A stretch of DNA of 64,000 bases from an uncultured Chlamydiae bacterium (GTDB lineage: Bacteria; Chlamydiota; Chlamydiia; Chlamydiales; SM23-39): assembly GCA_963730605.1 (NCBI GenBank), contig CAVSSM010000002.1, positions 384,001 through 448,000 of the forward strand. The letters run 5' to 3'. The notes under the pieces were generated by a model. It was not told the DNA's origin. It saw only the letters and a program-made list of their open reading frames with translations, and ran no database searches. Positions 8,607 through 42,526 of this stretch are shown piece by piece. Position numbers and translations under genes: made by a program. Within the stretch, counting starts at the first letter, position 1. Each line of letters opens with the position of its first letter.

Positions 8607-9970
8607 TCAAGGGAAACATCCTCTTCGAGATGCTTCTTGAGCTCGCCTAAGAAGCCGCAGCCGTAGATCCCATCCAAAACGCGGTGGTCGAAGGTCAGGG
8701 AAATCCACATCATCGACCGGATGGCGATCGAATCGTCGGGCATGGCCACCACTTTCTTGGTGATGGCGCCAAGCCCCACGATCGCAACTTCCGGGAAGCG
8801 GATGATCGGAATGCCGATCATCGTGCCGGTCATTCCGAAATTCGTCATCGTGATCGTTCCTTGCCGCGTCTCATTGGCCTCGAGACGCCCCGCGCGGGCC
8901 TTCTCAGCCATTTTAGCGACTGCTCGAGAAATTTCAGGGAGGTTCAGCCGTTGACAGCCTCGGATCACCGGAACCATAACCCCCTGCTCGACGCTCACTG
9001 CGATTCCAAGATTCACAAACTTCTGCATGACGATGGTATCCCCGTCAAGGAATGCGTTGAGGAGGGGAAATGCCTTGAGCGCCCTGGCGATCGCGCGGGC
9101 GACAAAAGCTGTGACGGAGATTTTGGCTCCGTGCTTTTGGAAAAATTGCGCTTTTTGATCTTGGATCAGTTTGACAATTCGCGTCACATCCACTTCAGTG
9201 ACTAAGGAGGCATGGGGCGCTTCATAGAAAGAGCGGACCATATTTTCGGCGATCGCTTTGCGAAACGAGCTCATTTTGACCCGTTCGGATTCGTCATCCT
9301 GGGGAGGCGGCAATGGCAATGAGTGTATGGCGGGGACGTAGTCTTCAACGTCTTTCTTCGTCAGCCGGCCGCCCTCTCCCGTCCGAAGGATCCGGCCGAC
9401 CTCTTCCAGTTTCAACCCTTTTTCCTTCAAAAGGCGCAAGACTGACGGCGAGAGAAAACCATCGGGAACCACAGCGCATTTTATACTGCTCTCGCCCAAA
9501 AAGTGTGAATCTGCCGGCGTCGGACAGCCACCGCTTTTGAGCCCGCCTCCATCGCTAAACTTTTCAAGTTTAGCTGCTTCTACGCCTGGATCAAAATCGG
9601 GGCGCTGCTTCGCACAAAAAATGTCTCCCAGACATTTTTTGTGATTCCGCAGTGGCATTTTCACACTTTTTGGGCGGTCGCAGTATACCTCGTCGGGCGG
9701 TGGAGCTGCTCTCTCAGGGCCGGTCCCGAGTCCGGCCAGGAGGGCCAGCGTTTCCCCGACTTGCATCTCTTGGCTGGGCTGAGCGAAAATCTCCTGGAGA
9801 ATCCCCGCCGCGGGCGACGGGATCTCGCTATTGATTTTATCGGTCGAAACCTCAAGGAGGGGCTCATCCAGTTCCACTTTGTCCCCAACGTTTTTGAACC
9901 ACTGGACGACCGTAGCGCTGACGATGCTCTCACCGAGCTTTGGCAAATTAATTTTAATCGGATCTGTCAT
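8603..9970 (-). CDS. sucB: 2-oxoacid dehydrogenase E2, dihydrolipoamide acyltransferase (68-aa in-frame insertion)
   Basis: Lipoyl STDKI, PSBD GEGGRLTKKD and catalytic FDHRVLDG motifs; which complex it serves is uncertain. Confidence 0.85.
   Translation of the reverse strand: MTDPIKINLPKLGESIVSATVVQWFKNVGDKVELDEPLLEVSTDKINSEIPSPAAGILQEIFAQPSQEMQVGETLALLAGLGTGPERAAPPPDEVYCDRPKSVKMPLRNHKKCLGDIFCAKQRPDFDPGVEAAKLEKFSDGGGLKSGGCPTPADSHFLGESSIKCAVVPDGFLSPSVLRLLKEKGLKLEEVGRILRTGEGGRLTKKDVEDYVPAIHSLPLPPPQDDESERVKMSSFRKAIAENMVRSFYEAPHASLVTEVDVTRIVKLIQDQKAQFFQKHGAKISVTAFVARAIARALKAFPLLNAFLDGDTIVMQKFVNLGIAVSVEQGVMVPVIRGCQRLNLPEISRAVAKMAEKARAGRLEANETRQGTITMTNFGMTGTMIGIPIIRFPEVAIVGLGAITKKVVAMPDDSIAIRSMMWISLTFDHRVLDGIYGCGFLGELKKHLEEDVSLD
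9482..9687. mobile_element. Palindromic MITE E1 inserted in-frame in the E2 gene
   Basis: TIR TATACTGC..CGCCCAAAAAGTGTGAA / TTCACACTTTTTGGGCG..GCAGTATA; TA duplication; net 204 bp = 68 codons. Confidence 0.85.
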
Positions 9971-10904
9971 AAGTGGATCTATTATCTATTTCTTGATTGA
10001 TTTTTGCAATGAGTTTTTCCCACTTTGCTTTTCCTTCCATCCATTCTATTTCTATTTCAATAAATACAATAGGAAGCGAGCAACGGGGACCTTTAATAAA
10101 GTCTTTTTCAGTCGTAATTAATGCTTTCGCTCCCAAGGTCTTGCACCGGGAGGCAAACTGTTCGAGGAGAAGGGGATCCGCCGGCTCGTGATCTGCGAGT
10201 TGCCATTCAGCCACAACAGAAGGCCCCAAATCATCTACATTTTTTTTAAAGATTGCAGGATTGGCGATCCCAGAGAAGAGCCCCACCTTCCATCCTCGGA
10301 CTAAGACCTCCTTCTCTTTCTCGTCCAGAACGCGGCTTACGCGATAGCGAAAGTCTAGGCCATTGCAAAAGACGGCATCGGCTCTCTTTAATCTTTTGGG
10401 GCTGTCTCGCAAAAAACCCCAAGGCAAATAGTGTCCTTTTCCAAAAGGATCTTCCTTTTTTGTAAGAACGATCTCGAAATCGCGGGCGAGCTTCCGGTGT
10501 TGCAAGCCATCGTCGAGGAGGATCAGATCTGCGCCCTCCTTGGCGGCCCGCTTTGCGGTCAATGTCCTCTTTTTGCCGATATAGATTTTCGCTTCGGCCA
10601 AACGGCGCTGTAAAAGCATCGCTTCGTCGGGGATTTTTCCATAGCCCCGTGAAAGGATCGCGACGCGCCGTGTTGCAAAGGAGGCCGCCATCATCTGGAC
10701 AAACGGCGTCTTGCCCGTTCCTCCGGCGACGATATTGCCGACGCTGACGACGGTGCAGGGAACTCTGACGCTGCGGATCCATTTCAGATCGAAGAGTTTG
10801 TTTTTGCAAAAGACTAAGCCTGCAAAGATCCAGCTGATCGGCGCGAAAAACCAAGCGCCCCGTTCAATGAGCCGGCGTCCCAGCAAGAGGACTTTGTTTC
10901 GCAT
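9954..10904 (-). CDS. lpxK: Tetraacyldisaccharide 4'-kinase
   Basis: VGNIVAGGTGKTP, SRGYG, DDGLQH and TTEKD; start set at MRNKV. Confidence 0.92.
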   Translation of the reverse strand: MRNKVLLLGRRLIERGAWFFAPISWIFAGLVFCKNKLFDLKWIRSVRVPCTVVSVGNIVAGGTGKTPFVQMMAASFATRRVAILSRGYGKIPDEAMLLQRRLAEAKIYIGKKRTLTAKRAAKEGADLILLDDGLQHRKLARDFEIVLTKKEDPFGKGHYLPWGFLRDSPKRLKRADAVFCNGLDFRYRVSRVLDEKEKEVLVRGWKVGLFSGIANPAIFKKNVDDLGPSVVAEWQLADHEPADPLLLEQFASRCKTLGAKALITTEKDFIKGPRCSLPIVFIEIEIEWMEGKAKWEKLIAKINQEIDNRSTYDRSD

Positions 10905-11472
10905 AGAATAATTGGTGTTCGACTTGTTCGATGAGAATATGGATTGCCGCCATCTGGGCTTCTTGGATCCGGTCAGAAAAAGGAAAGCCGGAGACGATCC
11001 ACTCGAGATCGCAAAGCCCTCGCATTTTTCCTCCGGTTTTTCCGAGAAATGCAATTGTTTTCAGCCCTTTTTGTCTTGCCGCGTGTGCCGCGGCGATGAG
11101 ATTTTCAGAATTTCCGCTCGTCGTCATTGCGACAAACACATCTCCCGGCTGGCCGAGAGCCTCGACGCCTCGCGAGAAAACCGATTGGAATCCCATATCG
11201 TTTCCAACGCAAGTTAAATGTCCGGGATCTGAGAGAGCAATCGCGGGCAGCGCGGGGCGAAATTTTCGATAGACCCCTGTCAATTCTTCGGCAAAGTGCA
11301 TGGCGTCGCAAAGACTGCCGCCATTGCCCGCGACCAGCAATTTCCCTTTATTCTGGAAGCAATCTGAAATCCAATACGCGGCCGTCTCGATGAAATGAAG
11401 GGCTTGAGGACTTTTAAGCGCATTGGCAGCACGGATCGCCTCTTCGACTGATTTTAGGATCCCGTTTTTCAT
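10864..11472 (-). CDS. gmhA: Phosphoheptose isomerase
   Basis: GNGGS, GNDMGF, TTSGNS and DRIQE; start set at MKNGI. Confidence 0.92.
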   Translation of the reverse strand: MKNGILKSVEEAIRAANALKSPQALHFIETAAYWISDCFQNKGKLLVAGNGGSLCDAMHFAEELTGVYRKFRPALPAIALSDPGHLTCVGNDMGFQSVFSRGVEALGQPGDVFVAMTTSGNSENLIAAAHAARQKGLKTIAFLGKTGGKMRGLCDLEWIVSGFPFSDRIQEAQMAAIHILIEQVEHQLFYAKQSPLAGTPAH

Positions 11473-11689
11473 GGATGGTTTATCCCTAGACACGAGAAAA
11501 CCCAGTCCTTCTTTTAAGCCTGAGGCGATTCTTGCTGATTCGATATACCGCCGAATCACAGCGAGTGGCGCGCTTCCGCATACTCCCGCGAAATAGCGGG
11601 AGACTGAAGACTGTCTCCCCATAAAGCATTCTGAACGCTCGGATGCTTCTCTTTTCGAACCAATTCTTGCAGAGACACCTTTCAGGCTG

Positions 11690-11719
11690 TTGACATTTGC
11701 ATAGACCAAAGCATAACAT
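11690..11719 (+). promoter_or_regulatory. Putative sigma70-type promoter for tnpB (possibly leaderless)
   Basis: TTGACA-N18-TAACAT, ATG 7 nt after the -10 box, no SD. Confidence 0.5.
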
Positions 11720-11725
11720 AGCGCC

Positions 11726-12863
11726 ATGTTAGTTCGGAAATCATTTCAATTCAGGCTGCGTCTTACAAAGAAACAAGCCAAGGCATTGCAAGCCCAGCTA
11801 GACGAATGTAGATGGCTCTATAACGAACTGCTCGAGCAGCGCAAACTTGGCTTACGAGGAACTGGATATTTCTCTATCCAAATATCAGCAACTCATGTTC
11901 TTGCCTCTGTTAAAAGAAGAAAGACCCTGCTCTTGATCAAGTCCATTCGCAGGTATTGCAAAATGTCGTAGATCGTCTGGATAAAGCTTTTCAGGCATTT
12001 TTTCGAAGATGCAAGGCAGGAGAAAAGCCTGGATTTCCCCGTTTTCGCGGTATGCATAGATACAATAGCTTTTGCTATCCGCAAAGCGGATTTTCCCTCG
12101 TTGGCAAAAAACTCAAACTCTCGAAACTCGGCACCATTCGCGATCAAGATGCATCGCCCCATAGAAGGAGAGGTCAAAACCTGCACATTGCGAAAAAATG
12201 CTTCAGGCGAATGGGATGTCTCTTTTTCTTGCGAAGTGAATGTAGAGCCTCTAGCTCCCAAGCAAGAAGCAATAGGAATCGATGTGGCCTTGAACATTTT
12301 GCAACTTTGTCCAACGGACAAGAGATTGCAAACCCGCGGTTTTTCAAGCACGGAGAAAAGGCGCTTGCAAAAGCACAAAGAAAACTTCAAAGCTGAAAAA
12401 AGGCACGCAGGAGAGGCGAAAACAAGGGAAAGGAGTAGCCAAGATTCATGAGCAAATCAGCAATCAGAGAAAAGATTTTTGCCACAAAGAGTCTAAAAAA
12501 ATCATCGATCAATACCAATACATTTGCGTAGAAGATCTGGACATCAAAAAAATGGTAGAAGGATCTCGTTTCGCAAAAAGCATTACAGACGCAAGTTGGA
12601 ATCAGTTTCGTCAGTTCCTCACCTACAAAGCGGCAGAAGCTGGTAGGAAATTGGGATTGGTGAACCCTGCCTATACGACACAAGAATGCAGTCAATGCGG
12701 ATACCGGGAGAGAAAAAACTCTCCGAAAGGAAGCATTGCTGCTTACGATGTGGGTATAAGACGACAAGGGATCTCAACGCAGCGCAGAATATTTTGGCCC
12801 TCGGATTGGATGGCCTGGGAGAAATCCCTAGAAGCCCTCGCCTTTAGGCGAGGGAGCAGTCAC
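11726..12863 (+). mobile_element. tnpB: IS200/IS605-family solo tnpB (several frameshifts) with right end
   Basis: HTH N-terminus, KPGFPRF, RuvC GIDV / VEDL / RDLNAA, Zn finger CSQCG; RE hairpin GAAG-CCCTCGCC-TTTA-GGCGAGGG then TCAC end; no tnpA seen. Confidence 0.88.
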
Positions 12864-12875
12864 AGTACTCTCAAT

Positions 12876-13904
12876 ATGCAAAACACTGCAATCGTCGGAG
12901 CAACTGGAGCGGTCGGACAAGAGATCCTCCGCCTTTTGGGAGTGCGTGCATTTCCGGTAAACCGCCTCCGGTGTTTTGCCTCATCTCGTTCCGTGGGAAA
13001 AAAGATCCGTTTCAAATCCGATGAGATCATTCTTGAAGCTTTGGATGAACATTCTCTAAAAGAGAGGGATCTTGCGTTTTTTGCCGCAGGAGGAACGGTA
13101 TCCAAGGAATGGATCCCGCGAATAAAATGTATGGTCGTCGATTCAAGCAGCGCATTTCGGGAATCGGCGCCTCTCATCATTCCTGAAATCAATGCCCACG
13201 CTCTAAAAACGCATCGAGGAGTCGTCGCATCTCCCAATTGCGCAGCGACGATTTTGTTGATGCCCCTTTTTCCACTACACTGTCAATACAAGGTCAAGCG
13301 CATCATCGCTTCCACTTACCAAGCAGCGAGCGGCGGCGGGGCTTTTTTACTCCAAGAGCTGAAACGGGAAACGGCCGCTTTTCTCGAAAACCGCCCCTAT
13401 TCCAACACTCTCCCCTTTCCCTACGCGTTCAATCTTTATCCTCATAATTCGTCCCTTCATCCGTCCGGCTACGTCGAAGAAGAGCGGAAAATCCTCTTTG
13501 AGACGCGCAAAATCCTCGAAGATCCTACGATTCAGGTGAGCGCGACCTGCGTGCGCGTTCCCGTGCTGAGAGCCCATTCGATCTCAGCCAACGTTGAATT
13601 TCACCGCCCTTTTTCCCTCGATGCCATTTATGCGGCATGGTCGCGCACTCCCGGATTGAAAATCTTCGAAGACAGATCCAACAACCGTTTTCCGACCCCT
13701 TTCGACGCTACGGGAAAAGACGACGTTTTCTGCGGGCGGCTCCGCATTGATCCGAGCCAGCCCAATACGCTCGAATTTTGGGCCGTCGGAGACCAGCTTC
13801 TGAAAGGCGCTGCCCTCAACGCCGTGCAAATCGCAGAGCTTCTTGTTCAATCAAAGGGCGCGGGCGTCTCGAACGTCAGCAGCTCTTTTGTCACAGGATG
13901 TTGA
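12876..13904 (+). CDS. asd: Aspartate-semialdehyde dehydrogenase
   Basis: GATGAVG, SPNC, TYQAASG and DQLLKGAALNAVQ; true start MQNTA (ORF-track extension is tnpB). Confidence 0.93.
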   Translation: MQNTAIVGATGAVGQEILRLLGVRAFPVNRLRCFASSRSVGKKIRFKSDEIILEALDEHSLKERDLAFFAAGGTVSKEWIPRIKCMVVDSSSAFRESAPLIIPEINAHALKTHRGVVASPNCAATILLMPLFPLHCQYKVKRIIASTYQAASGGGAFLLQELKRETAAFLENRPYSNTLPFPYAFNLYPHNSSLHPSGYVEEERKILFETRKILEDPTIQVSATCVRVPVLRAHSISANVEFHRPFSLDAIYAAWSRTPGLKIFEDRSNNRFPTPFDATGKDDVFCGRLRIDPSQPNTLEFWAVGDQLLKGAALNAVQIAELLVQSKGAGVSNVSSSFVTGC

Positions 13905-14497
13905 AAGGCCAGTTTTTGTCCGTGGAGTCGGATGGAGGCGCCGTCTCCACTTTGACTGCCGTAGCGTTTGTCGCCCACAATCGGGTGGCCGATGGCGGAA
14001 AATTGCGCCCGGATCTGATGATAGCGCCCCGTTTCTAATTCGATTTCGATGACTGTCGAATGGATCTTGTGTTTGAGCGTCTTGTAATAGAGGCGGGCGT
14101 GTTTGGCTCCCTCGTCGTCTTTTTTTGCAAGCAGGGCCTGATGGTCCCCGTGGATCAGGTAATGGTCGAGCCGCCCCTCCTTTTTTGCAAGGACCCCTTC
14201 CACTTCCGCGAGATAAATTCTTTGGATCTCCTGCAGCCTCGATTGCTCATTTAATCGGCTTAAAGCTTTGCTCGTGCGGGCGAAAAGGACAAGGCCGCTC
14301 ACAGCGCGGTCGAGACGGTGGATGGCGTGGAGGAACACATTGCCTTTTTTGTGGTACTCCCGTTTCACCCAAAGCTTCAGATGAGCTTCAAGGCTAGGAG
14401 ATGTCTCATCCGGCTGGGTCAGCATGCCGCAAGGCTTTGCCGCCACAGCGATATGATTATCGGCGTATAGAACTTCGGCGCTGTCTAACGACTTCAT
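13847..14497 (-). CDS. RluA-family pseudouridine synthase
   Basis: HRLDRAVSG, TGRYHQIR and GD.RYG motifs. Confidence 0.9.
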   Translation of the reverse strand: MKSLDSAEVLYADNHIAVAAKPCGMLTQPDETSPSLEAHLKLWVKREYHKKGNVFLHAIHRLDRAVSGLVLFARTSKALSRLNEQSRLQEIQRIYLAEVEGVLAKKEGRLDHYLIHGDHQALLAKKDDEGAKHARLYYKTLKHKIHSTVIEIELETGRYHQIRAQFSAIGHPIVGDKRYGSQSGDGASIRLHGQKLAFQHPVTKELLTFETPAPFD

Positions 14498-15257
14498 AAA
14501 GGAGCAGAGTGGTGGCCGATGCGACGTTGAGCGAATCGGCGGTTCCGAACATGGGAATCCGCACCGAGATATCGGCCTCTTTCATCCACATTTCCGAGAG
14601 TCCATATTGCTCCGTTCCCATCGCGATCGCAAGAGGAACTTTAAAATCCGCGCTCGTAAACTCGAGCTCCGCATGGGGAGTTGCCGCGGCAATCGCTATG
14701 CCCCGCTCTTTCAGGAAGCGGATCGTCTCCTCGCTTCCCGCCTCACAGACCGCTTGAGTAAAAAGAGTGCCCACGCTGGAGCGGACGACATTCGGGTTAT
14801 GGATGTCGGTGGTCCGGTCGCAAACGATCACGGCGTCGACGCCGGCCGCATCAGAGGAACGGAGGATGCTGCCGAGATTGCCCGGCTTTTCGATGCTCTC
14901 GGCGATGAGAAAAAAGGGACATGCGGAAAGGGACAAATCGGTCAGTTTTCGATGCATCTGCTTCGCAATAGCGAGCAGGCCGTCAGGGCGGTCCCGGTAC
15001 GATAGTTTGTTGAATACCGCGAGGCTGCACGCAAACGCGCTGCAGTGGGCATCCGCAATGAGGGCCTCTTCGTTTACACTTAAGAAAAATTCCGGACAAT
15101 AAAAAATGGTCTCGACTTGAACTCCCGCATCCACAGCCCGCTTCAACTCGCGATACCCTTCGATCAGAAACTGGTCCGCTTCATCTCGATCGCGTCGATC
15201 GCGAAGCCGCACAGCAACTTTCACTTTCGGATTTTGCAGGCTGGTAATTTCTGTCAT
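14457..15257 (-). CDS. TrmH/SpoU-family RNA methyltransferase
   Basis: EKPGNLG, GTEQYG and SLNVASA SPOUT motifs. Confidence 0.92.
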   Translation of the reverse strand: MTEITSLQNPKVKVAVRLRDRRDRDEADQFLIEGYRELKRAVDAGVQVETIFYCPEFFLSVNEEALIADAHCSAFACSLAVFNKLSYRDRPDGLLAIAKQMHRKLTDLSLSACPFFLIAESIEKPGNLGSILRSSDAAGVDAVIVCDRTTDIHNPNVVRSSVGTLFTQAVCEAGSEETIRFLKERGIAIAAATPHAELEFTSADFKVPLAIAMGTEQYGLSEMWMKEADISVRIPMFGTADSLNVASATTLLLYEVVRQRRSSIRR

Positions 15258-15273
15258 GAGCCTATCCGCAAGG

Positions 15274-16394
15274 TATACCCAAGGAAATTCAAAACTTGGC
15301 AGCAGGTGCCTGAAAGGGACTAAATTTATCCCTAACCCGGCTTCTTAAATCCCGGCCTAAAGTTGACTCCGCGGTCATAGTCGCCAATACAGCGAAAAAA
15401 CCAAGAATCGCTCCTCTAAAGTCTTCAAAGTACTCGTAATAAGTATTGTAAACTACCCGCTCCTTCATCCATTTCCACAGTCGTTCTATCGGGTTTAGAT
15501 TGGGGCTATAGGGCGGTAAAAAGTGCAAACAAACTTTTGCCGTTTCTAGGTACTGCCTCACAGCCCTATTCCGATAGTACGGTGCATTATCGCAAAATAC
15601 ATGGATCTTTCGTTTACTCGGGTAAAATTCTTCGATCTTTTGGAAAAACCGGATTATCGATTCTGCGTTTAAAGTCTCGTCTTCTTGGATTACCACACTG
15701 TGGGTGATGACATCGATGCTCCCTGAAAGATTGAGCCTGGCACGTCCTGTGTTTGCTGGGATCTCTTTACGCACGCCTTTTTTGATCCACCCATAAGCAG
15801 GCTGCACATTGTGCGTTGGATGAACGCCGTCAATAAAGCAGATAGTCTCATCCTCGAGGAGTTCTGCCTTGAGTTTCTCGTATCCGGCGAGCCACTTTTG
15901 TTGCTGCTCTTTGTTGGCTTTCCCGGGTACAACGGCGGGTTTTTTGTAGGAAAATCCGTGTCTTCGCAGCCAATCCCTCAATCCGTGGACGGTATAGACA
16001 ATACCGAAAGTCACTTCTACATATGCGACGATATCCTTGACGTAAAGGTACGTGTGTTCTTGAAGATGAGCCTCAAGTTGCTCGGACTGCGTTTGGGATA
16101 GTTTCTCCTCGGAGCCGCCGCTTTCGGGGCGCAATTTTTTCGACGTTTTGTATGCGTCAACATGGTGACGAACTGCTTCGTCAGAAATCAACAGAACCCT
16201 GGCAATGTCTTTGGGAGCCCACCCCTCATCATAGAGGAGAACAGCCTTTATTCGATCACGCACCCGCCCATCGCGGTCCCCCCGGTGCCGGAGTTTGAGT
16301 TCCTGTCGTTCTGAGTCGGTTAAAAAATTCACGCAGCCATTGTGCAGTCAAGGGAAATTTTCACGCATCAAAATTTTGAATCACGAGCGGTATA
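15274..16394 (-). mobile_element. IS630-family element, copy 1 (1121 bp including TA duplications)
   Basis: Near-identical to 41313-42433; TATACC ends. Confidence 0.95.
15289..16332 (-). CDS. IS630 transposase
   Basis: DNAPYY and LPPYSPNLNPIERLW motifs. Confidence 0.95.
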   Translation of the reverse strand: MNFLTDSERQELKLRHRGDRDGRVRDRIKAVLLYDEGWAPKDIARVLLISDEAVRHHVDAYKTSKKLRPESGGSEEKLSQTQSEQLEAHLQEHTYLYVKDIVAYVEVTFGIVYTVHGLRDWLRRHGFSYKKPAVVPGKANKEQQQKWLAGYEKLKAELLEDETICFIDGVHPTHNVQPAYGWIKKGVRKEIPANTGRARLNLSGSIDVITHSVVIQEDETLNAESIIRFFQKIEEFYPSKRKIHVFCDNAPYYRNRAVRQYLETAKVCLHFLPPYSPNLNPIERLWKWMKERVVYNTYYEYFEDFRGAILGFFAVLATMTAESTLGRDLRSRVRDKFSPFQAPAAKF

Positions 16395-16533
16395 GAGTGA
16401 AAAAGATACGCAGAGATTTTGAGATGATTTTTGCGATTGGAGCCGAAGGCAAGGCTAGAAGCCTTGCCGAGGAGAAAGCGCAAAAAGCGCTCAAAAGATC
16501 CCGTAGATTTTTTATTCCACTTTGCGGATAGGC

Positions 16534-17337: not shown

Positions 17338-18440
17338 GAAAAAGTCGCTGAGTTGTGAACAATGCGGCGCCATAAGGCCCCCAAAGCTGTCTGGACGGAG
17401 AACTCGATGCCGGCTCTTCGGTCCTGAGGGGCGCTCAAACGGCCGACATCGATCTCTTTTCCTCTTTCCGCTACCGCGATATAGACCGTTCCCACGGGTT
17501 TATGAACGCTGCCGCCTTTCGGCCCCAATGTTCCAGAAACGCTGATGGCAAAATCGCACTCAGTCTCTTCGAAAAGACCTTGGATCATCTCTTCGACCGT
17601 TTCTCTACTCACCGCGCCCTTACGCGATAAGGTGTCGTGGCGCACGCCCAAAAACCGCTCTTTCCATCGATTGGAATAAGCGACGATCGATCCGGCAAAG
17701 AAAAACGAGGCGTCGGGAATGGCAGAGAGCCTTGCTGCAAGCGCGCCGCCGGTGCATGATTCGGCGAGGCTTAACGTTTTCTTCCTTGCAATCATTTCAC
17801 GGTGGACCGCAACTTCGAGCGTCCCTTCCCCTACATAAAAAGTGGGAAACTGCTCTTGCACTCTACGGATCAAGCCGTCTACCGGATGGGGGCTCCGAAA
17901 TACGACTTGGAGCGATCCGTAGGAGGGATAAATGCCGATTTCTAAACCCGGCGCCTGCAGCTTCCTAAGAAAAGGATCGACTTCCAATTCGCGGAGTAGC
18001 GCGAGCGTGCAGCAGCGGAGATAATAACGTTTATCCAAAGGATAGCGCTCTTCCAAAAGAGGGAGCGCCTCTTCTAAAAACATCCGCTCCATTTCTCTCG
18101 GGACGCCCGGCAAAAGAACTAGGTTGCCTCCAAAAACGCCCATCGCCGTCCCGAGGAGGTTTTTCAGTTCCAGAGGCTTTTCAGTAAAAAGAGGCAATAC
18201 GGCTTGCCGCGTCAAATCATCCAGAGTCGGGCCGAGCCCGCCCGTCGCTACGACAAAAGCGGAGCGGCGCATCGCTTCTTGCACGCATGCGCGAATCGCT
18301 TCGATCTCATCGGGCAAAATAGTATGGCGGCGGACTGAGTAGCCCCGATCGGTCAATGCGCGGCTTAAAAACGCGGCGTTGCTATTGACCGTTTGGCCTC
18401 TCAAGACCTCATCGCCGATGGAAAGAATCTCAACATCCAT
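17334..18440 (-). CDS. cinA: CinA / nicotinamide-nucleotide amidohydrolase
   Basis: GGLGPTLDD, PGVPREM and AESCTGG motifs. Confidence 0.92.
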   Translation of the reverse strand: MDVEILSIGDEVLRGQTVNSNAAFLSRALTDRGYSVRRHTILPDEIEAIRACVQEAMRRSAFVVATGGLGPTLDDLTRQAVLPLFTEKPLELKNLLGTAMGVFGGNLVLLPGVPREMERMFLEEALPLLEERYPLDKRYYLRCCTLALLRELEVDPFLRKLQAPGLEIGIYPSYGSLQVVFRSPHPVDGLIRRVQEQFPTFYVGEGTLEVAVHREMIARKKTLSLAESCTGGALAARLSAIPDASFFFAGSIVAYSNRWKERFLGVRHDTLSRKGAVSRETVEEMIQGLFEETECDFAISVSGTLGPKGGSVHKPVGTVYIAVAERGKEIDVGRLSAPQDRRAGIEFSVQTALGALWRRIVHNSATFS

Positions 18441-18763
18441 GAGCCTATCTCACGATTCTAAAATAGCGATTTTTGATGAATTTTTTCGCATGTTTTATAC
18501 CGAAACAACCTGAAGAATCGGGAATTTGACAAGGAGGCTCCTCAGAATTTGTGTTCGGAGCAAGCGACCATTGCGCGTGCGCAAGGCGCGAGTGAGAACA
18601 AAAATTCTGAGGTAAAGCCGACGCAGTCAAAAACCGATTCTTCAGGTTGTTTCGATATAGCCTCACTTCGCAGGCTATACTTGAGAATGTAGGCCAAGAA
18701 GCGAGGCTAAAAGATTCGGAAAAAGGCGCGAAAAGCGCTGCTTTAGAATAGTGAGATAGGCTC
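18441..18763. mobile_element. Palindromic MITE E6 (~161 bp) containing nested E3
   Basis: TIR GAGCCTATCTCAC.ATTCTAAA / TTTAGAAT.GTGAGATAGGCTC; same 9-bp ends as E5. Confidence 0.82.
18496..18659. mobile_element. ERIC/RPE-like MITE E3 (164 bp)
   Basis: TIR TATACCGAAACAACCTGAAGAATCGG / CCGATTCTTCAGGTTGTTTCGATATA; TA ends. Confidence 0.85.
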
Positions 18764-19433
18764 ATAAGATGGATATTCCTTGGCTCATCAGTTGGGGATG
18801 GCGGCCAATCCAGGAAAAGCATCCCTTTCCCAGCCGGATTGGACTGTTGATCCGCTCTCCTTCCACGATAAAGGGTGTGGCCCTCGACTCCTGCCTCACC
18901 CAAAGCCGCACCTCTTCGAACAGCTTGCCCCGCTCGACCTCTCGCAGTTCCATCGTCTTAGCATCCTGATAGAGGCTTGGAAAGGAAAATTGGATCCCCC
19001 AAAATACGCTTTGCAGCCCCATTGACATAGGGCGGAAGACACCATCCATTTTTGAGTAAGAAAAAGAGTGCGCCTGCGCCAGCAAGACCGGCTTTGCCAT
19101 CTTCATCAGATACCCTTTGTCCGGCACCTCTTGCAGCCACAAAGAGTCAAGATCGTCTGTCATGGCCGCGGCGAGAATTTTCTTCAGCGCAAAATCTTCC
19201 GGAACGCGCCCTTCTTTTAACCCCGCGATCCAAGAACCATATTCGGCAAGGAAACTTTCCTCGGAAAGAGGATGCCCATTGACGATGCCAGTCAGAGGGA
19301 AAATGTAAAACGGCCTCAAGCGCAAAAAGAGCCGCTCGAGCTCAGCTTGTTCGCAAAGAACTTGGAATTTCAACCATTTGGAGCCTTGGTATTCACCCTC
19401 TTTCTCAGGGATGGAGATGCGGAGAAGTCTCAT
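18762..19433 (-). CDS. Hypothetical protein
   Basis: ORF coupled to lspA by an ATGA overlap; start set at MRLLR. Confidence 0.75.
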   Translation of the reverse strand: MRLLRISIPEKEGEYQGSKWLKFQVLCEQAELERLFLRLRPFYIFPLTGIVNGHPLSEESFLAEYGSWIAGLKEGRVPEDFALKKILAAAMTDDLDSLWLQEVPDKGYLMKMAKPVLLAQAHSFSYSKMDGVFRPMSMGLQSVFWGIQFSFPSLYQDAKTMELREVERGKLFEEVRLWVRQESRATPFIVEGERINSPIRLGKGCFSWIGRHPQLMSQGISIL

Positions 19434-19915
19434 ACAGGTTGAGGCGTCTTCTTGAAGGATTCTGCAATGAGGAGAAAAAAGACGCCGATCGTAATATAGG
19501 AATCGGCGAAATTGAATACGGGAAAAGAGCGGCCCCAAAAAGTAAAATGGAAGAAATCGATCACATGGCCATAAAGGACGAAGTCAAGGGCATTGCCGAT
19601 TGCGCCTGTGACGACGAGCCAAAGAGGGAATGCTCCGCGCGCGCTCTTGTTAAAAAGGATCAGATACACCAAAAGACCTAAGATGATCGCCGCCCTGAGA
19701 GCAAAAAGTAGGCTGGGATGGCCCGGGAAAAGTCCGTAAGCTGCACCCGTATTCACAACGTAATTGAGAGAAAAACTGATCCCAAGAAAATCGGAAAAAA
19801 TTCCGAGCCCGCCGAAAGGATAGCCGCCTTTTGTCATCGGAGGAATCCAGGCGATCGCCCCCATCTTCGACGCAATGTCTAAGAGGAAAAGCAAGAAGAG
19901 GACCTGATATCTCAC
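19430..19915 (-). CDS. lspA: Lipoprotein signal peptidase II
   Basis: NTGAAYG, GAIGNALD and FNFADSYI motifs. Confidence 0.93.
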   Translation of the reverse strand: MRYQVLFLLFLLDIASKMGAIAWIPPMTKGGYPFGGLGIFSDFLGISFSLNYVVNTGAAYGLFPGHPSLLFALRAAIILGLLVYLILFNKSARGAFPLWLVVTGAIGNALDFVLYGHVIDFFHFTFWGRSFPVFNFADSYITIGVFFLLIAESFKKTPQPV

Positions 19916-20277
19916 AGGAGACCCTTTTCAAATTTTTCTTGGGCTTTTACAGTCATCGTCGCATAAGGGATCGCTTCGAGGCGCTTGACCGGGATCTCTT
20001 CTTCAGTGATATCGCAGACGCCATAACTTCCCTCTTCGATCTTTTGGAGGGCGCGGTCGATTTGGCGGAGGAGCCCGAATTCTTTGTTAGCGACTTCGAG
20101 ATTGATTTGTTTGACAAAGTCGTCCGTCCCCTCGTCGGCTGAATGCTGGGAATAGCCCTTCGCTTCATCGGGAGTCGTCGCCTCTTTTTTCGATCCTTCA
20201 ATGGTCTGCATGACCTGAGCGCGCAATTCTAAAAGTCTTTTCTTGAAATGATCGATTTCACTTTTTTTCAACGGCAT
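19912..20277 (-). CDS. dksA: DksA/TraR-family regulator
   Basis: HSADEGTD coiled-coil tip; RLEAIPYA (single-Cys chlamydial type). Confidence 0.9.
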   Translation of the reverse strand: MPLKKSEIDHFKKRLLELRAQVMQTIEGSKKEATTPDEAKGYSQHSADEGTDDFVKQINLEVANKEFGLLRQIDRALQKIEEGSYGVCDITEEEIPVKRLEAIPYATMTVKAQEKFEKGLL

Positions 20278-20740
20278 TGGCATCCTCGTTTTGTTGCGGA
20301 GCAATCATCCGGATCGCCTCCAGGAGTTCTCGGATGTCCTTGAATCGCTTATAAACGCAAGCGAAACGGATATAGGCGACCACGTCGGTTTCTTTCAGGT
20401 GCTGCATCACAATCTCCCCAAGCTCGCGGCTCGCGATCTCCCGTACTCCGCGGGCCATCAGATCGGACTTGATCTTATAGGCCAAGGCGCGAACTTGATC
20501 GTGGCTAATGAGCGTGTGCCGGCAAGCGGCATCCATCCCAGAAATCAGCTTCTCCTGTTGGAAATCCTCGTAAGTCCCATCCCTTTTCTTCACTTGGAGG
20601 CTCAAATCGACAGTCTCGAAGGTCGTGAACCTCCGCATACACTGGCAACATTCCCTCCGGCGGCGGATTGCATTGATCTCGATAGCATCGCGCGAGTCGG
20701 TGACCTTCGACTCCTCATGATTGCAAAAAGGACATCTCAT
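20258..20740 (-). CDS. nrdR: Transcriptional repressor NrdR
   Basis: CPFC, RRRRECxxC and AYIRFACVY motifs. Confidence 0.96.
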   Translation of the reverse strand: MRCPFCNHEESKVTDSRDAIEINAIRRRRECCQCMRRFTTFETVDLSLQVKKRDGTYEDFQQEKLISGMDAACRHTLISHDQVRALAYKIKSDLMARGVREIASRELGEIVMQHLKETDVVAYIRFACVYKRFKDIRELLEAIRMIAPQQNEDANAVEKK

Positions 20741-20793
20741 ATCTTTCGAAGACCTGTTTGACAGGTCTCCATTTTTTTGAAAAGAATTCGTTA

Positions 20794-21219
20794 CGGAGAG
20801 GGTGGGATCCCCTCACGCGGGCCTTCGGCCCGTCTCCCGGGGCGGCGATTCGCGGACGCAGCCGCTCATTCGAATCCTACCCCGCAACACGCGCAGGCGT
20901 GTTGCTTCTTCCGCTTTTTGCGGCAAAAATCGGAGAGGGTGGGATCCCCTCACGCGGGCCTTCGGCCCGTCTCCCGGGGCGGCGATTCGCGGACGCAGCC
21001 GCTCATTCGAATCCTACCCCGCAACACGCGCAGGCGTGTTGCTTCTTCCGCTTTTTGCGGCAAAAATCGGAGAGGGTGGGATCCCCTCACGCGGGCCTTC
21101 GGCCCGTCTCCCGGGGCGGCGATTCGCGGACGCAGCCGCTCATTCGAATCCTACCCCGCAACACGCGCAGGCGTGTTGCTTCTTCCGCTTTTTGCGGCAA
21201 AAATCGGAGAGGGTGGGAT
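20794..21219 (-). repeat. Three tandem 137-bp tRNA-linked repeats
   Basis: Units start at 20794, 20931 and 21068; each carries the 15-nt tRNA-Ser 3' end also found at 21205. Confidence 0.95.
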
Positions 21220-21291
21220 TCGAACCCACGATACGTTTTCACGTATACACGCTTTCCAAGCGTGCTCCTTAAGCCACTCGGACACCTCTCC
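21205..21291 (-). tRNA. tRNA-Ser(GGA)
   Basis: GGAGAGGTGTCCGAGTGG...CACGC-TT-GGA-AA-GCGTG, long variable arm, GGTTCGAATCC; CCA not encoded. Confidence 0.96.
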
Positions 21292-21499
21292 ACATACTTT
21301 CCAACCTAGCGAAAAGGCAAGAGAATATCCAAACCGAGCAAAACCCACAAGATGGAATGGCGATTAAAAAATTTTTAGGATACCCAGACCTTGAAGTCCG
21401 AGTCTATTTCAAAAAAATATTATAATTTATTTTTAGTTTTAGTTTTATTTAAACCACAAACATGTTAAAATACTAGAAATCAAAAAAAATGGAGGCATT

Positions 21500-22327
21500 A
21501 TGAGTTATGTTATTTCCACATCGGTTCCCGGCGTCTATGCCAGCCTGAAGAAGGAGGAAGTGTTATTATTGGCTGAACGCTTTTTCCAGTGCCCTGCTGC
21601 GGCTAAGCTTCTTGGTTCCGAGCGGTTCATCAAACCGCTTCTCATAGACTGCGAAAATATTCCGGGGTCTAAATCGGACGTTGAATATGAAAAGAGTAAT
21701 GCTAATCCCTTAAGAGCGATGATCTTAATTCCGGAAAAGCTTCTTCAGTCGACAAAGGCTCTGCTGGATCTTGCCTTTGAGATCTTTAACACCCAAAGAA
21801 GTTCCTCCGGTTTGGATTTGCAAAAGCAGGCTGAGCTTGGGAATGTGGGGATGGATTCTTATGCTAGGAAAAGAGAAGAGCGAGAGACCGCGGACACTCA
21901 GGAACACCATAAATTGATCAAACAATGCGCAAAATCATGGAAGCTATCTCCCAAAACACTGGAAGAATCTTTTCTCAAAGAAAATGAAAACCTAGAGGTT
22001 GACTTATTTAAGCAAGAATACGTGTGCCATACAGATCGGTACCGCCAAGAATGGATCGATATGTTTCAAAAAATTTATTGCAACAAACATCCTGACGATT
22101 TTGGCCGTTCTTGCAAGACTAAAAAGAAAGATCTTTGCGACCAGGATAAGTTGCTCAGAATGTCCCTGTCAGAGCGATCGGAGTTTGCGTTTAAGCGGGC
22201 TTGCAAACTATTTCCTCAAGCCCATGAAAACGTGAAAAACGACCCCGCCACTAGAAAGATGATCCAGAGGGAATGCCCGAGTGCGCTAGGTAAATCCTCG
22301 AATCAACCCATTAAGAAGGATCTTTGA
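21500..22327 (+). CDS. Hypothetical protein (Cys-rich C-terminus)
   Basis: 275-aa ORF with GGAGG RBS and AT-rich promoter region. Confidence 0.75.
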   Translation: MSYVISTSVPGVYASLKKEEVLLLAERFFQCPAAAKLLGSERFIKPLLIDCENIPGSKSDVEYEKSNANPLRAMILIPEKLLQSTKALLDLAFEIFNTQRSSSGLDLQKQAELGNVGMDSYARKREERETADTQEHHKLIKQCAKSWKLSPKTLEESFLKENENLEVDLFKQEYVCHTDRYRQEWIDMFQKIYCNKHPDDFGRSCKTKKKDLCDQDKLLRMSLSERSEFAFKRACKLFPQAHENVKNDPATRKMIQRECPSALGKSSNQPIKKDL

Positions 22328-22337
22328 CCCTTCTTCT

Positions 22338-23402
22338 TCAGCCTTTTTTTTGGGCGAGGATGTAGTGGCTGGTGGTTACGAGGCCTAGGCGATCCGCTTC
22401 GATGAATGCGTCTCCGTCTTTGCAGAGCCGGTCGAACAGCAACTTGAAATGGCCCGGAAGAATCTTGCACTTAACCAGGAAATTGATAGCCCGATTGACC
22501 CGCGTAAAGAACTTATCGGCATTCTCGATCAAAGGCGCTTGGTAGCCCCCAACGCTCGCATTTTCATTTTTCAGGATCTCGAACCCGGCCTCTTGCAAGA
22601 GACGGGTGCAGTTTCCTACGGAATGGGTGCCGATCGCGCCGATCAGCGGCTTGACCCGGCTCATCAAGGCGGCATGATGCGGATTTTTCGGGTCGTATTT
22701 ATCGAGGCTCGCCCATTCGAGGCATGCGAACCGCCCTCCGGGTTTGAGGAGCCGGTGAATTTCTTTGAAAGTTTTCCCCAAGTCTTTCGCGTAGGTGAAT
22801 ATGCACTGGATTTCATAGATATGGTCGAAAGATCCGTCCGGAAAAGGATAGGGGATCTGATTTAAATTTCTTTTAATGAACTCAGTTCGGCTGGATAGTC
22901 CCTTTTGCAGCGCATATTTTCTCGCGCAGGTTAATTGATCGGGGTCGAGATTCAACCCGGTCACATGGGCTCCGGAACTTGTCGCCATTTGGCTTGCGAC
23001 ACGGCCTCTGCCGCACCCGATATCGAGGGCTTTTTTGCCTGGCGCCAGCCCTAAGTCTTTGCACATATTCTTTTCAAAGAGCTTTTGGTTGGCCATAATG
23101 CTAGCCGATAGATCGATGGCCGGAGGGATATACATCTTTTCCACCTGGCCGACAGAGCAAAGATGGTTGAGCACCGAGTAGTAATCGACAATTTTTTTTT
23201 GGATCTCCTGCTCGTAGTTCGGCCCAAGCTTTTTGATGAGGTCTTCTTCTTCAGCCCAATCGCAGTCGTAGATGACGTAAGAGTTGAGAAACGCGTCGAC
23301 TTTCTCGGGAGGCAGAGTATATAGAGTCTTTAAAGACTTTAACACCGTCGATAACCGGTAAGACCAAAATTGGAACTTTGAAGGAAGCGTAGAAAGAGGC
23401 AT
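22338..23402 (-). CDS. SAM-dependent methyltransferase, sterol C24-methyltransferase-like
   Basis: LDIGCGRG, VTGLN, FPDGSFD and LEWASLDKYDPKNPHH; start uncertain (up to 23495). Confidence 0.75.
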   Translation of the reverse strand: MPLSTLPSKFQFWSYRLSTVLKSLKTLYTLPPEKVDAFLNSYVIYDCDWAEEEDLIKKLGPNYEQEIQKKIVDYYSVLNHLCSVGQVEKMYIPPAIDLSASIMANQKLFEKNMCKDLGLAPGKKALDIGCGRGRVASQMATSSGAHVTGLNLDPDQLTCARKYALQKGLSSRTEFIKRNLNQIPYPFPDGSFDHIYEIQCIFTYAKDLGKTFKEIHRLLKPGGRFACLEWASLDKYDPKNPHHAALMSRVKPLIGAIGTHSVGNCTRLLQEAGFEILKNENASVGGYQAPLIENADKFFTRVNRAINFLVKCKILPGHFKLLFDRLCKDGDAFIEADRLGLVTTSHYILAQKKG

Positions 23403-23515
23403 GCAAACCACCTTAAATGAATTTCTTGAAATATTCATATCGAGCTCGATTCTGTCAACTTCTTTCATGTCCTTCCTTGACTTCGGGACCTTCATGCTGA
23501 GATACTGTCCTCGTT

Positions 23516-24664
23516 ATGCTTCTTTTTAGATATATACCGAAACAACTCGAAGATTTGGTTTCTGCCTTCGTCGGACAGCCACAAGCTTTGAGCCCGCCTG
23601 CACCCCACCCCAAAGACGATGCGTCTTCGGGGACCCCGGCGTTCAACTTATTCAAGTTGAGCTGCTTCGGCGGCGCCTTCGCCTGGCTCAAATCTTGGGC
23701 GCTGCTTCGCATAAAAAAGGTCCATTCAAGGACCTTTTTTATGATTTCGCAGTGGCATTTTTCCCAAATCTTCAAATTGTTTCGGTATTTCCCGATCCTC
23801 ATTTTGCTTCTTGCCGGATGCGGCCGGGCCCCGCAGCCTCTAGAAAACGCAAGGCCCCTCGTTCTCGTCAGCATCGCCCCTTATAAGTTTATCGCGGAGC
23901 GGATCGCAGGCAAAGCCTTGGATGTTCAGACGATCATCCCCCCGCGCTCTAATCCCCATGTTTTCGAGCCGACGTCGCGTCAAGTTCTCGAAATCTCTCG
24001 GGGCCAGGTATGGTTTCGCATCGGGGAGCCGTTCGAAGCGAAAGTGCTCCTCTTGCTTCAAGAGAGCCATCCCGGCTTGATCGTCTCTGACTTGCGGGAT
24101 GGGATCGAGTTGCAGCCGTTGGAGGACGTTGACCACTCCCTATGCACTCATTGCTCGTCCGACTCTCTGGACAGACATATCTGGCTGAGCCCGAAGCTGG
24201 CCGGCCAGCAAGCAGTCCATATCGCCAAGGTTTTATCGGACCGCTTTCCAGAGCATAGGGAAGAGATCCAAAAAAACCTTCAAGAATGCCTTGCAGAGCT
24301 CAAAGACCTTGACTTAGAGATCCGAAAGCTTCTAGCCCCTCAACAAGCGCGCTCGTTCATCGTCTCCCATTCCGCTTTCGGATATTTTTGCCACGAATAC
24401 GGACTAGAGCAGCTCTCCGTCGAACAGGAAGGGAAAGACGCCCGCCCGCGCCGTTTGGAAGAGATGCTCTCAAAGGCGAGACGCCTCTCTACAGCAGTCG
24501 CTTTTGCCCTGCCCCAGCATAATAACAAGGGCGCACAGATGATCGCAGATGAGATACACATTCCGATTCGGATGATCGACCCCTATTCGGCCGACTATTT
24601 CAACACCTTGCGAACCCTTGCCCAACTCATCGCCGATCCCCGGAGTGAGATTTCTCCCTCATGA
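23516..24664 (+). CDS. znuA: Zn/Mn ABC transporter substrate-binding lipoprotein (MITE in signal peptide)
   Basis: NPHVFEP, DRHIWLSP and HSAFGYF motifs; lipobox LAGC. Confidence 0.88.
   Translation: MLLFRYIPKQLEDLVSAFVGQPQALSPPAPHPKDDASSGTPAFNLFKLSCFGGAFAWLKSWALLRIKKVHSRTFFMISQWHFSQIFKLFRYFPILILLLAGCGRAPQPLENARPLVLVSIAPYKFIAERIAGKALDVQTIIPPRSNPHVFEPTSRQVLEISRGQVWFRIGEPFEAKVLLLLQESHPGLIVSDLRDGIELQPLEDVDHSLCTHCSSDSLDRHIWLSPKLAGQQAVHIAKVLSDRFPEHREEIQKNLQECLAELKDLDLEIRKLLAPQQARSFIVSHSAFGYFCHEYGLEQLSVEQEGKDARPRRLEEMLSKARRLSTAVAFALPQHNNKGAQMIADEIHIPIRMIDPYSADYFNTLRTLAQLIADPRSEISPS
23534..23788. mobile_element. Palindromic MITE E2 inserted in-frame in znuA
   Basis: TIR ATACCGAAACAA / TTGTTTCGGTAT; 255 bp = 85 codons; core homologous to E1. 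Confidence 0.85.
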
Positions 24665-42433: not shown

Positions 42434-42526
42434 TATTTTCCGTTACTGGGACATTTATTTATATGATTTTTATTACTTATAATTTATAATAAATCAAATT
42501 AAACTATAAATAAATATGGTAAACAT

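Follow-up and report, generated by a model that had tools for sequence, protein, structure and literature searches.

Two hairpin-rich repeats, E1 and E2, lie in frame inside protein-coding genes on opposite strands of the 64,000-nucleotide stretch of DNA analysed here (the window). This locus raises the question of what kind of element can enter genes in this way, how it may move, and at what level its fold is maintained. An earlier note, made from the sequence alone, had described the pair as a mobile family resembling the Rickettsia palindromic elements (RPEs), with an RNA or single-stranded DNA fold under selection. With regard to the genome that carries them (83% complete), it encodes three strong TLC ATP/ADP translocases (controls 0/14) and gave no match to FtsZ_C (controls 13/14), both of which are consistent with a chlamydia-like bacterium; the chlamydial marker PF03504 matched neither this genome nor its control and is uninformative, and Pfam gave no match for P0003 or for the proline-rich ORF. 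The two repeats, their host genes and a further copy in the window are as follows, where R1 is a covariance model from 20 other genomes that contains no sequence of the present one.

9482..9687, plus strand: E1, a family copy of 206 bp (TA + 202 bp + TA), by sequence reading and model R1
9613..9643: hairpin module of E1 (CACAAAAAATGTCT / AGACATTTTTTGTG), missing from the basal 175 bp form
8603..9970, minus strand: host gene of E1, a 2-oxoacid dehydrogenase E2 acyltransferase, by domain matches
18496..18659, minus strand: third window copy, 164 bp class (net 162), R1 score 94.5 bits
23533..23789, plus strand: E2, a family copy of 257 bp (net 255), by sequence reading and model R1
23607..23637 (C2:407607-407637): nested mini-hairpin of E2 (CCCCAAAGACG ATGC GTCTTCGGGG), 116 copies in the genome
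23710..23743: hairpin module of E2 (CATAAAAAAGGTCC / GGACCTTTTTTATG), with an ATG inside at 23741
23516..24664, plus strand: host gene of E2, a ZnuA-type lipoprotein (ZnuA match 1.7e-51)

E1 consists of a basal core with one A-run/T-run hairpin module and lacks the nested mini-hairpin; E2 combines the core with both the mini-hairpin and a hairpin module, and 151 of 206 aligned columns are identical between the two. The ordered motifs and three compensated stems described earlier are all present, and the coordinates first given hold for E1 but fall one base short on each side of E2 (23533-23789 vs 23534-23788). A covariance model, the kind of check proposed in the earlier note but here built from other genomes, matches both repeats: R1 scored E1 at 85.6 bits (E 1.3e-15, over model positions 1-175) and E2 at 63.7 bits (E 5e-11). 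Their folds were more stable than expected from shuffled sequences (z -11.7 for E1 and -10.6 for E2, with 0/200 shuffles as good in each case). In the third copy, which lies between two minus-strand ORFs, the outer arms are as in the family and the centre is different.

Both repeats lie in the reading frame of their host genes. E1 is read on the minus strand within ORF 8603-9970, where it contributes ~68 residues (about 96-163) to the linker that joins the lipoyl domain to the E3-binding domain (Biotin_lipoyl 6-77, E3_binding 172-209, 2-oxoacid_dh 227-450). Among the matches listed, orthologous frames are mostly 376-423 aa long and up to 472 aa, compared with 460 aa here, and none of the orthologue rows covers the insert region. 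E2 is read on the plus strand within ORF 23516-24664 and interrupts codon 6 of the signal peptide (MLLFRY|FPILILLLAGC). E1 and E2 are true insertions, because a congeneric genome (G003) has both sites empty: GAGG-TA[..]TA-AAATGC here corresponds to GAGG-CA-AAATGC there (net insertion 204 bases), and at the E2 site the congener has an unbroken ATGCTTCTTTTTAGATATTTCCCG (net insertion 255 bases). Thus, the net lengths, reading frames and opposite strands proposed earlier agree with both the ORFs and the empty sites. In four soil sequencing runs of one study, contigs span both E1 junctions and none joins across an empty site, but these contigs are uninformative on polymorphism at E1 because contigs lose rare variants.

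It could be argued that such highly structured inserts in housekeeping genes are removed in the manner of introns or inteins, leaving the host protein unchanged. We consider this very improbable, given that no intron or ribozyme family was matched, that inspection of the sequence revealed neither splice nor intein motifs, that the insert is open only in the frame used (one of six frames in E1), and that net lengths divisible by three would be needless if the inserts were spliced out.

Two further genes show the same contrast between filled and empty sites. At the copy at C11:81443-81663, the G003 and G001 proteins are contiguous without residues 828-898, and at the copy in RecD2 (C7:30663-30979) the proteins of G001, G002, G004 and G005 run on without a break at residues 338/440. 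Each of the four sites carries an element here and lacks it in every assessable congener, which bears out the mobility claimed earlier; therefore, these copies are young and have not been long retained. A G003 copy on contig C119 was considered as a shared RecD2 insertion and ruled out, its flanks being unrelated.

Our searches indicated that E1 and E2 are copies of a multi-copy family of small, non-coding, hairpin-folding mobile elements found in many environmental chlamydia-like genomes. In the 2.2 Mb genome, nhmmer returned 153 matches (126 loci after merging), and model R1 returned 71 matches at no fewer than 67 loci with 150 of 1029 candidates scored, well beyond the two copies first noticed. 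Of 150 genomes sampled across the phylum, 49 had family matches, and the family was not found in 26 small genomes of one phylum family. The basal form is 173-176 bp long, and the size classes are 164, 206, 221, 257 and 317 bases, each with a net length divisible by three. A motif scan of genome contigs gave 11 single matches, two of which (L053, L057) are true family members; the other nine, from unrelated taxa, were rejected as chance. Most copies appear to be intergenic and many adjoin gene starts or ends, as judged from crude stop-to-stop ORFs that left 10 of 25 copies without a clear class. With regard to earlier descriptions, Rfam matched only rRNA and tRNA in the window at gathering thresholds, and no relevant family came up when E1 and four basal elements were searched by E-value. 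Neither our literature search nor the accessible portion of a 2024 review of prokaryotic MITEs yielded an account of a chlamydial MITE, in line with the initial impression that the family had not been described.

A conserved core with covarying helices, found across 13 of the 27 sampled families of the phylum, could also be expected of a non-mobile family of chromosomal structured non-coding RNA genes. This reading is the least probable of those we considered, since it sits badly with the four sites that are empty in congeners, the TA that flanks copies, the copies within coding sequences, and the dozens of near-identical copies per genome (e.g., about 19 in G153, at 181-193 bits). In addition, two species carry the 317 bp variant at sites that are not orthologous, with 97% identity between the copies.

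How, then, might the family move? Full-length copies in this genome begin with TATAC in 23/25 cases and end with GTATA in 19/25, and those of the 20 other genomes do so in 15/20 and 19/20, respectively. Terminal inverted repeats are present as helix 1, whose 24 pairs are formed in 92.2% of cells across the 20 genomes. The flanking TA is clean at the ends of E1 and degenerate at E2 (TA on the left and TT on the right, with a 3-base TAT ambiguity) and at C11:81443 (CA/TA). Such ends and flanks are consistent with a TA target duplication. Two copies of an insertion sequence in the window have comparable ends.

15274..16394, minus strand: ISa, a 1121 bp IS630-family insertion sequence with ends TATACC...GGTATA, by profile match and ends
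41313..42433, plus strand: ISa, second window copy, by sequence match

ISa matched the IS630-family model NF033545 at 218 bits (cut-off 100), and its 14 identical copies are among 29 DDE_3 matches in the genome. One MITE subtype, distinct from those of E1 and E2, begins with the same 21 bases that ISa has at its left end (TATACCGCTCGTGATTCAAAA). Because ISa shares its termini with the small elements, which have no transposase gene and an interior unrelated to it, it is likely to mobilise the family in trans as its autonomous partner. The link is weaker for the E1 and E2 subtypes because fewer terminal bases match (~10 and ~7, respectively, plus a CAAAA/GAAGA-type motif). G071 and G153 likewise carry IS630-like elements that end in TATAC (8 and 15 copies, respectively), whereas G268 (94% complete) had no DDE_3 matches, with two candidates scored, despite carrying family elements. 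What we add to the earlier reading, therefore, is that the family is likely an IS630-type MITE that duplicates TA and has an autonomous partner in the same genome.

The hairpin-rich architecture, the 116 nested REP-like mini-hairpins and the remnants of an IS200/IS605 element in the window could instead suggest movement as single-stranded hairpins by a tyrosine (HUH/Y1) transposase, as for REP/RAYT or IS200/IS605-derived palindromic elements. We regard this as highly unlikely. The IS200/IS605 class makes no flanking TA duplication, whereas TA is found on both sides of our copies, and their termini equal those of an IS630 element. Only one Y1_Tnp fragment (54 residues) was detected in the 83% complete genome. 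Strand bias is also lacking: in the one-contig genome G153, 21 of 41 loci are on the plus strand and 20 on the minus strand, interspersed. Of the Y1 partner, lack of duplication and strand bias that characterise REP/RAYT and IS200/IS605-derived elements, none was observed here.

Taken together, we consider it probable that E1 and E2 are TA-flanked, hairpin-folding MITEs that an IS630-family transposase encoded in the same genome moves in trans. Under this mechanism, the ISa transposase would bind the inverted ends of an element, cut at the flanking TA and paste the element into another TA. Optional small hairpin cassettes nest in the conserved 175-base core of seven helices and thereby give rise to the size classes. 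Insertions into genes would survive only if the frame is kept, stops are absent and the place is tolerant, as the inter-domain linker (E1) and the start of the signal peptide (E2) may be. Finally, the covarying fold is predicted to be needed in the DNA for the element to propagate itself, perhaps because it draws the two ends of a very short element close to each other; this is the least certain step.

The fold comprises 59 pairs in seven helices, with 93.2% of cells paired over the 20 genomes compared with 76.8% in shuffles and 28-44% in slid controls. The covarying core proposed earlier is well supported, in that 46 of the 59 pairs vary on both sides and none of 500 shuffles reached the observed values, noting that the structure tested was predicted from the same alignment. 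Each of the seven helices covaried strongly, with 35 internal pairs among them. In a count of 58 distinct elements, the pair cells were Watson-Crick in 2845 cases, G-U in 65, A-C in 106 and other in 140, and G-U did not exceed A-C in either orientation. Relative to tandem flanking ORFs in this genome, four copies lie on the same strand and five on the opposite strand, based on crude ORF calls. As wobble pairs are not enriched and no orientation bias was seen, the constraint looks DNA-level or strand-neutral, rather than that of an RNA gene read from one strand, and the RNA or single-stranded DNA fold first envisaged is not favoured.

It is nonetheless conceivable that the fold is kept as RNA, in which case a co-transcribed hairpin would affect how stable the mRNA is, how it is processed or how it terminates, and structured copies would be kept by the host. 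The strong covariation, the very stable RNA folds of E1 and E2, the many copies that adjoin gene starts or ends, and the A-run and T-run that border the optional hairpin cassettes would all fit such a role. There is also precedent, as MITE transcripts form stable stem-loops, and those of Correia and ERIC elements are substrates of RNase III and RNase E, according to the available text of PMC10969869. We judge an RNA role to be unlikely, however, given the wobble and orientation counts (transversion mismatches are as common, at 140) and the youth of the copies at all four tested sites. A scan for terminators called none within E1 or E2, and the A-run/T-run hairpins were rejected as terminators.

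Our preferred reading, that of IS630-mobilised MITEs, also has its difficulties. A role of the fold in DNA is a conjecture, because cut-and-paste of double-stranded DNA offers no known reason for covariation in internal helices. Moreover, a conserved interior with variable ends is the opposite of the usual MITE pattern and counts against the MITE explanation. A tentative reading that we hold to be rather doubtful is that the seven-helix fold is itself the working part, as folded DNA or a strand-neutral RNA hairpin recognised by an IS630-type transposase or by the host; the open-frame classes with three-multiple lengths would then be adapted for translation, and the family would be a phylum-wide source of linker and loop insertions in chlamydial proteins.

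As to adaptation for translation, in-frame copies within genes occur on both strands, as described earlier, but a count of them gave at least four supported cases and two candidates, a minority of the 67 or more loci and consistent with survivorship. Most copies have 0-3 open frames, and the net length of the basal form (173) is not divisible by three. Net lengths divisible by three are over-represented (20 of 40 full model matches), yet not all of these are independent because nine of the 20 belong to the one 164 bp class. In 10 other copies, the peptide encoded by the 221/317 bp variant is found again at 83-92% identity; E1 and E2, with opposite reading strands, have no common peptide.

Small size, many dispersed copies, terminal inverted repeats, TA duplication and empty sites make the family an RPE/ERIC-like bacterial MITE. 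To our knowledge, no partner transposase has been reported for RPEs. RPE-1 to RPE-10 and our family alike are short palindromic repeats from lineages of obligate intracellular bacteria; the present family differs in host phylum and in having flanking TA and ends that match a resident IS630 element. The two also share, by description in the available sections of PMC10969869, in-frame positions inside protein-coding genes where a peptide is added at tolerant places. According to the same text, nearly half of the RPEs of R. conorii lie in ORFs (PMC10969869), compared with at least 4 of at least 67 loci here, so that an RPE-like high share is not seen.

ERIC and Correia/NEMIS elements resemble the family as imperfect palindromes of 100-200 bp with inverted ends and stable hairpins, present in multiple copies that are mostly intergenic and occasionally intragenic. 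ERIC reportedly shows TA duplication and compensatory substitutions. Unlike these elements, the family has a candidate transposase, nested cassettes, another host phylum and a core that is conserved phylum-wide while its ends vary. Stowaway elements are eukaryotic and their ends are conserved, as opposed to the variable ends seen here, and we know of no seven-helix covarying core described for them. Among IS630-family insertion sequences, ISa has the TA flanks and TATAC termini of the family, which differs in lacking a transposase. Like the family, Stowaway-type MITEs of the Tc1/mariner superfamily are small, target TA and have a strong potential for secondary structure, and they share with it mobilisation in trans by mariner/IS630-type DDE transposases (likely in our case), as far as the consulted part of PMC6881990 describes them.

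Environmental chlamydiae are seldom discussed as MITE hosts, and this family has about as clean a covarying fold as a repeat could offer. The proteins that it alters include the E2 acyltransferase (linker), ZnuA (signal peptide), RecD2 and a conserved 990-residue protein. In annotation, a family covariance model would guard against wrongly called starts, spurious extension of reading frames and broken contigs in assemblies of chlamydiae. Because a plausible transposase accompanies the family, both the entry of palindromic elements into genes and the need for the fold can now be tested. If the fold is indeed the working part, the family would provide a tractable model, with its partner transposase, for RPE-like gene entry.

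The two copies E1 and E2 of a TA-flanked, hairpin-folding MITE family (TATAC...GTATA ends) were each found inside an open reading frame (ORF) of the window:

E1, 9482-9687, inside the minus-strand ORF 8603-9970, stop-free in the frame used
E2, placed here at 23533-23789, inside the plus-strand ORF 23516-24664, stop-free in the frame used

The copies are identical at 151 of 206 aligned columns, and the shared motifs and three compensated stems described in the earlier note were present in both. Folding energies were -101.7 kcal/mol for E1 (z -11.7) and -115.3 kcal/mol for E2 (z -10.6), values that 0 of 200 shuffles equalled in either case.

The host of E1 is a 2-oxoacid dehydrogenase E2 acyltransferase (lipoyl domain 6-77, E3-binding 172-209, catalytic 227-450), to which the element adds ~68 residues in the flexible linker. 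The best matches to this host in 30 other genomes are split (residues 1 to ~90 and ~165 to 455), and orthologous open frames measure 376-423 aa in most rows listed (up to 472) vs. 460 here. In the congener G003 the two halves abut (GAGG-CA-AAATGC, compared with GAGG-TA[TAC...GTA]TA-AAATGC in the window), so that the net insertion amounts to 204 bases, with TA on both sides. The host of E2 is a ZnuA-type lipoprotein whose site is uninterrupted in G003, reading ATG CTT CTT TTT AGA TAT TTC CCG... (MLLFRYFPILILLLAGC); E2 therefore splits signal-peptide codon 6 and adds 255 bases, with a 3-base TAT ambiguity at the junction and TT as the right flank. A sigma-70-like site lies upstream (23477-23506), and translation may begin either at the old ATG (23516) or at an ATG inside E2 (23741) that has AAGGA just before it. 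With both ORFs stop-free and both sites empty in G003, the proposal of in-frame insertion, read from opposite strands, was confirmed.

Searching the source genome (2.2 Mb, 12 contigs, 50% G+C, 83% complete) with an nhmmer profile of 19 copies returned 153 matches, which after merging left 126 loci with a total of 19,207 bases. The full-length copies (n = 25) span 186-311 bp, starting with TATAC in 23/25 and ending with GTATA in 19/25. Copies are mosaics on a common core, with at least five inverted-end types, one hairpin out of three alternatives, each with an A-run and a T-run beside it (two of the alternatives being the third stem of the earlier note), and an optional mini-hairpin, CCCCAAAGACG-ATGC-GTCTTCGGGG, that occurs in 116 copies genome-wide, also in tandem arrays.

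The mini-hairpin is 31-38 bases long (e.g., window 23607-23637; G000:C1:317830-318040, C7:8766-9082, and C1:625329-626022 of the source genome) and shows a covarying stem (AAAGAC/GTCTT, AAAAAC/GTTTTT, AAAGAT/ATCTTT, AAAGTC/GACTT). Larger elements contain it at three nesting sites, one of which is framed by a repeated GGCGGCG, and its tandem arrays have periods of 36 and 45 bases. The congener G006 contains 33-35 base stretches that are 100% identical. No intact Y1/RAYT transposase was found in the source genome (83% complete).

To evaluate the fold, we used an alignment (A2) of 20 basal elements, one per genome and none from the source genome, with a mean column identity of 79%. RNAalifold predicted seven helices with 59 pairs, of which 46 change on both sides. 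Specifically, for this structure, which was predicted from the same alignment on which it was scored, 93.2% of cells were paired (76.8% in shuffles), 178 cells were double-changed (45.9 in shuffles), and the covariation score was 0.440 (0.148 in shuffles), with 0 of 500 shuffles reaching any observed value. Shifting partners by 1-3 columns left 28-44% of cells paired. Double changes occurred in every helix, and not in the terminal one alone. The covariance model built from A2 recovered 71 matches at 67 loci in the source genome (150 of 1029 candidates scored), among them E1, E2, and one more copy in the window, of the 164 bp class (18496-18659). The earlier note would have abandoned its proposal for a family of these two copies alone with no significant covariation, or for one already described in Rfam or as an ISfinder MITE; instead there are at least 67 loci, covariation is strong, and searches of the window, E1, and four basal elements gave no Rfam family for these elements.

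Selection on the fold, as the earlier note had proposed, agrees with the strong covariation in every helix, but the suggested RNA or single-stranded DNA form fared less well. The covariance model served to align 58 distinct elements, whose helix cells comprised 2845 Watson-Crick, 65 G-U, 106 A-C, and 140 other pairs. With G-U at 65 vs. A-C at 106, wobble pairs are not favoured in either orientation, and the mismatches within helices have the look of simple decay. In the carrier genome G153 (one contig), 21 plus and 20 minus loci (41 in total) are interspersed, which argues against a single-strand mechanism that depends on the replication strand. The Y1 transposase is represented in the source genome by one fragment only, and in tandem gene contexts 4 copies lie on the same strand as their neighbours and 5 on the opposite one (from crude ORF calls, with 10/25 contexts unclear). 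Taken together, these four observations favour a constraint that is DNA-level or strand-neutral and tied to the element's own spread. A strand-neutral role as an RNA hairpin, as in ERIC or Correia, may be an alternative.

In the source genome, DDE_3 matches number 29 and fall into three IS630-like elements. One of these, ISa (1121 bp), has identical transposase copies (n = 14) and scores 218 bits against NCBIfam IS630 (cut-off 100). Mobile and other features of the window include:

1-2427, rRNA operon, with 16S (881-2427, minus) and the 5' part of 23S (1-520, minus)
10864-11727, minus, Y1_Tnp fragment (residues 11-64) heading a SIS-domain ORF, an IS200/IS605 remnant
12552-13904, plus, TnpB zinc-ribbon fragment (Cas12f1-like_TNB, residues 16-55) heading an aspartate-semialdehyde dehydrogenase ORF, likewise an IS200/IS605 remnant
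15274-16394, ISa copy, with its transposase at 15289-16332
41313-44128, IS cluster of an ISa copy (41313-42433) and then the IS630-like ISb, 1203 bp (42926-44128)

Elsewhere in the genome ISb lies inside the third element, ISc. IS630 elements duplicate TA, and ISa has the termini TATACC...GGTATA at five sites with different flanks. Its left end is identical to the initial 21 bases of one subtype of the small elements; ~10 terminal bases are common to ISa and the E1 subtype and ~7 to ISa and the E2 subtype, together with an A-rich motif at an equal distance. The ends of ISb and ISc are different. IS630-like elements also end in TATAC in the carriers G071 (8 copies) and G153 (15 copies), and no DDE_3 match was obtained in the carrier G268 (94% complete). 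The G268 elements share 84-86% identity with E2 across 133 bases. ISa is the likely partner of the small elements, and we infer that it mobilises them.

Across the phylum, BLAST with E2 (E <= 1e-8; 2 candidates scored per genome) detected the family in 30 of 300 sampled genomes and 22 of 165 genera, the matches being complete elements of 173-176 bp that represent a basal form without cassettes. The A2 model (E <= 1e-5; 18 candidates scored per genome) detected it in 49/150 sampled genomes, 35/90 genera, and 13/27 families, with no matches in 26 genomes of one family (rows listed 1.0-1.2 Mb), which by this size may be the classical Chlamydiaceae. Three strong TLC translocase matches and no FtsZ_C match in the source genome (83% complete) are consistent with a chlamydia-like organism. 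A 317 bp variant is ~97% identical between G003:C119 and G000:C7:30400-31300, two different species, at non-orthologous sites with unrelated flanks; this points to an element that was active lately or passed from one lineage to another.

With regard to reading frame, the basal form, at a net length of 173, shifts the frame, and most copies have 0-2 open frames. Net length modulo 3 was 0 in 20, 1 in 9, and 2 in 11 of 40 full model matches (partial and second-strand rows of the 71 left out), and the 164 bp class supplies nine of the twenty modulo-0 copies. The in-frame count proposed in the earlier note gave E1, E2, and two more supported cases, plus two candidates:

C11:81443-81663, 221 bp, within a 1057-residue ORF that is conserved; the orthologues in G003 and G001 lack residues 828-898 and run on uninterrupted there
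C7:30663-30979, 317 bp, in RecD2/YrrC, where it separates the HHH domain from the ATPase; empty in G001, G002, G004, and G005
C4:3246-3562, candidate
C1:12688-13004, candidate

E1 and the 221 and 317 bp copies are read opposite to the model orientation, and E2 in the same orientation. A 164 bp copy (C1:131846-132009) also sits 24 codons ahead of the stop of a 600-residue open frame (G000:C1:131800-133900, minus) that includes roughly 140 prolines in a row and has no Pfam match. In-frame reading is therefore real as a recurrent minority, and the likeness to Rickettsia palindromic elements (RPE) drawn in the earlier note holds for these gene copies; the family is a MITE of IS630 type. This fits the survival of a few insertions, those that preserve the frame and fall within linkers or at termini.

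In a full-text literature search, the passages returned included no paper pairing MITEs with chlamydiae. Passages of the Waddlia genome paper and of the hydra symbiont paper mention only numerous repeats and only IS elements, respectively; 'chlamyd' and 'IS630' each occur 0 times in a 2024 review on MITEs of prokaryotes, and the Cardinium MITE paper concerns an IS982 derivative. Overall, it is well supported that these elements form an IS630-type MITE family whose covarying fold is unusually clean and whose in-frame survivors are RPE-like.
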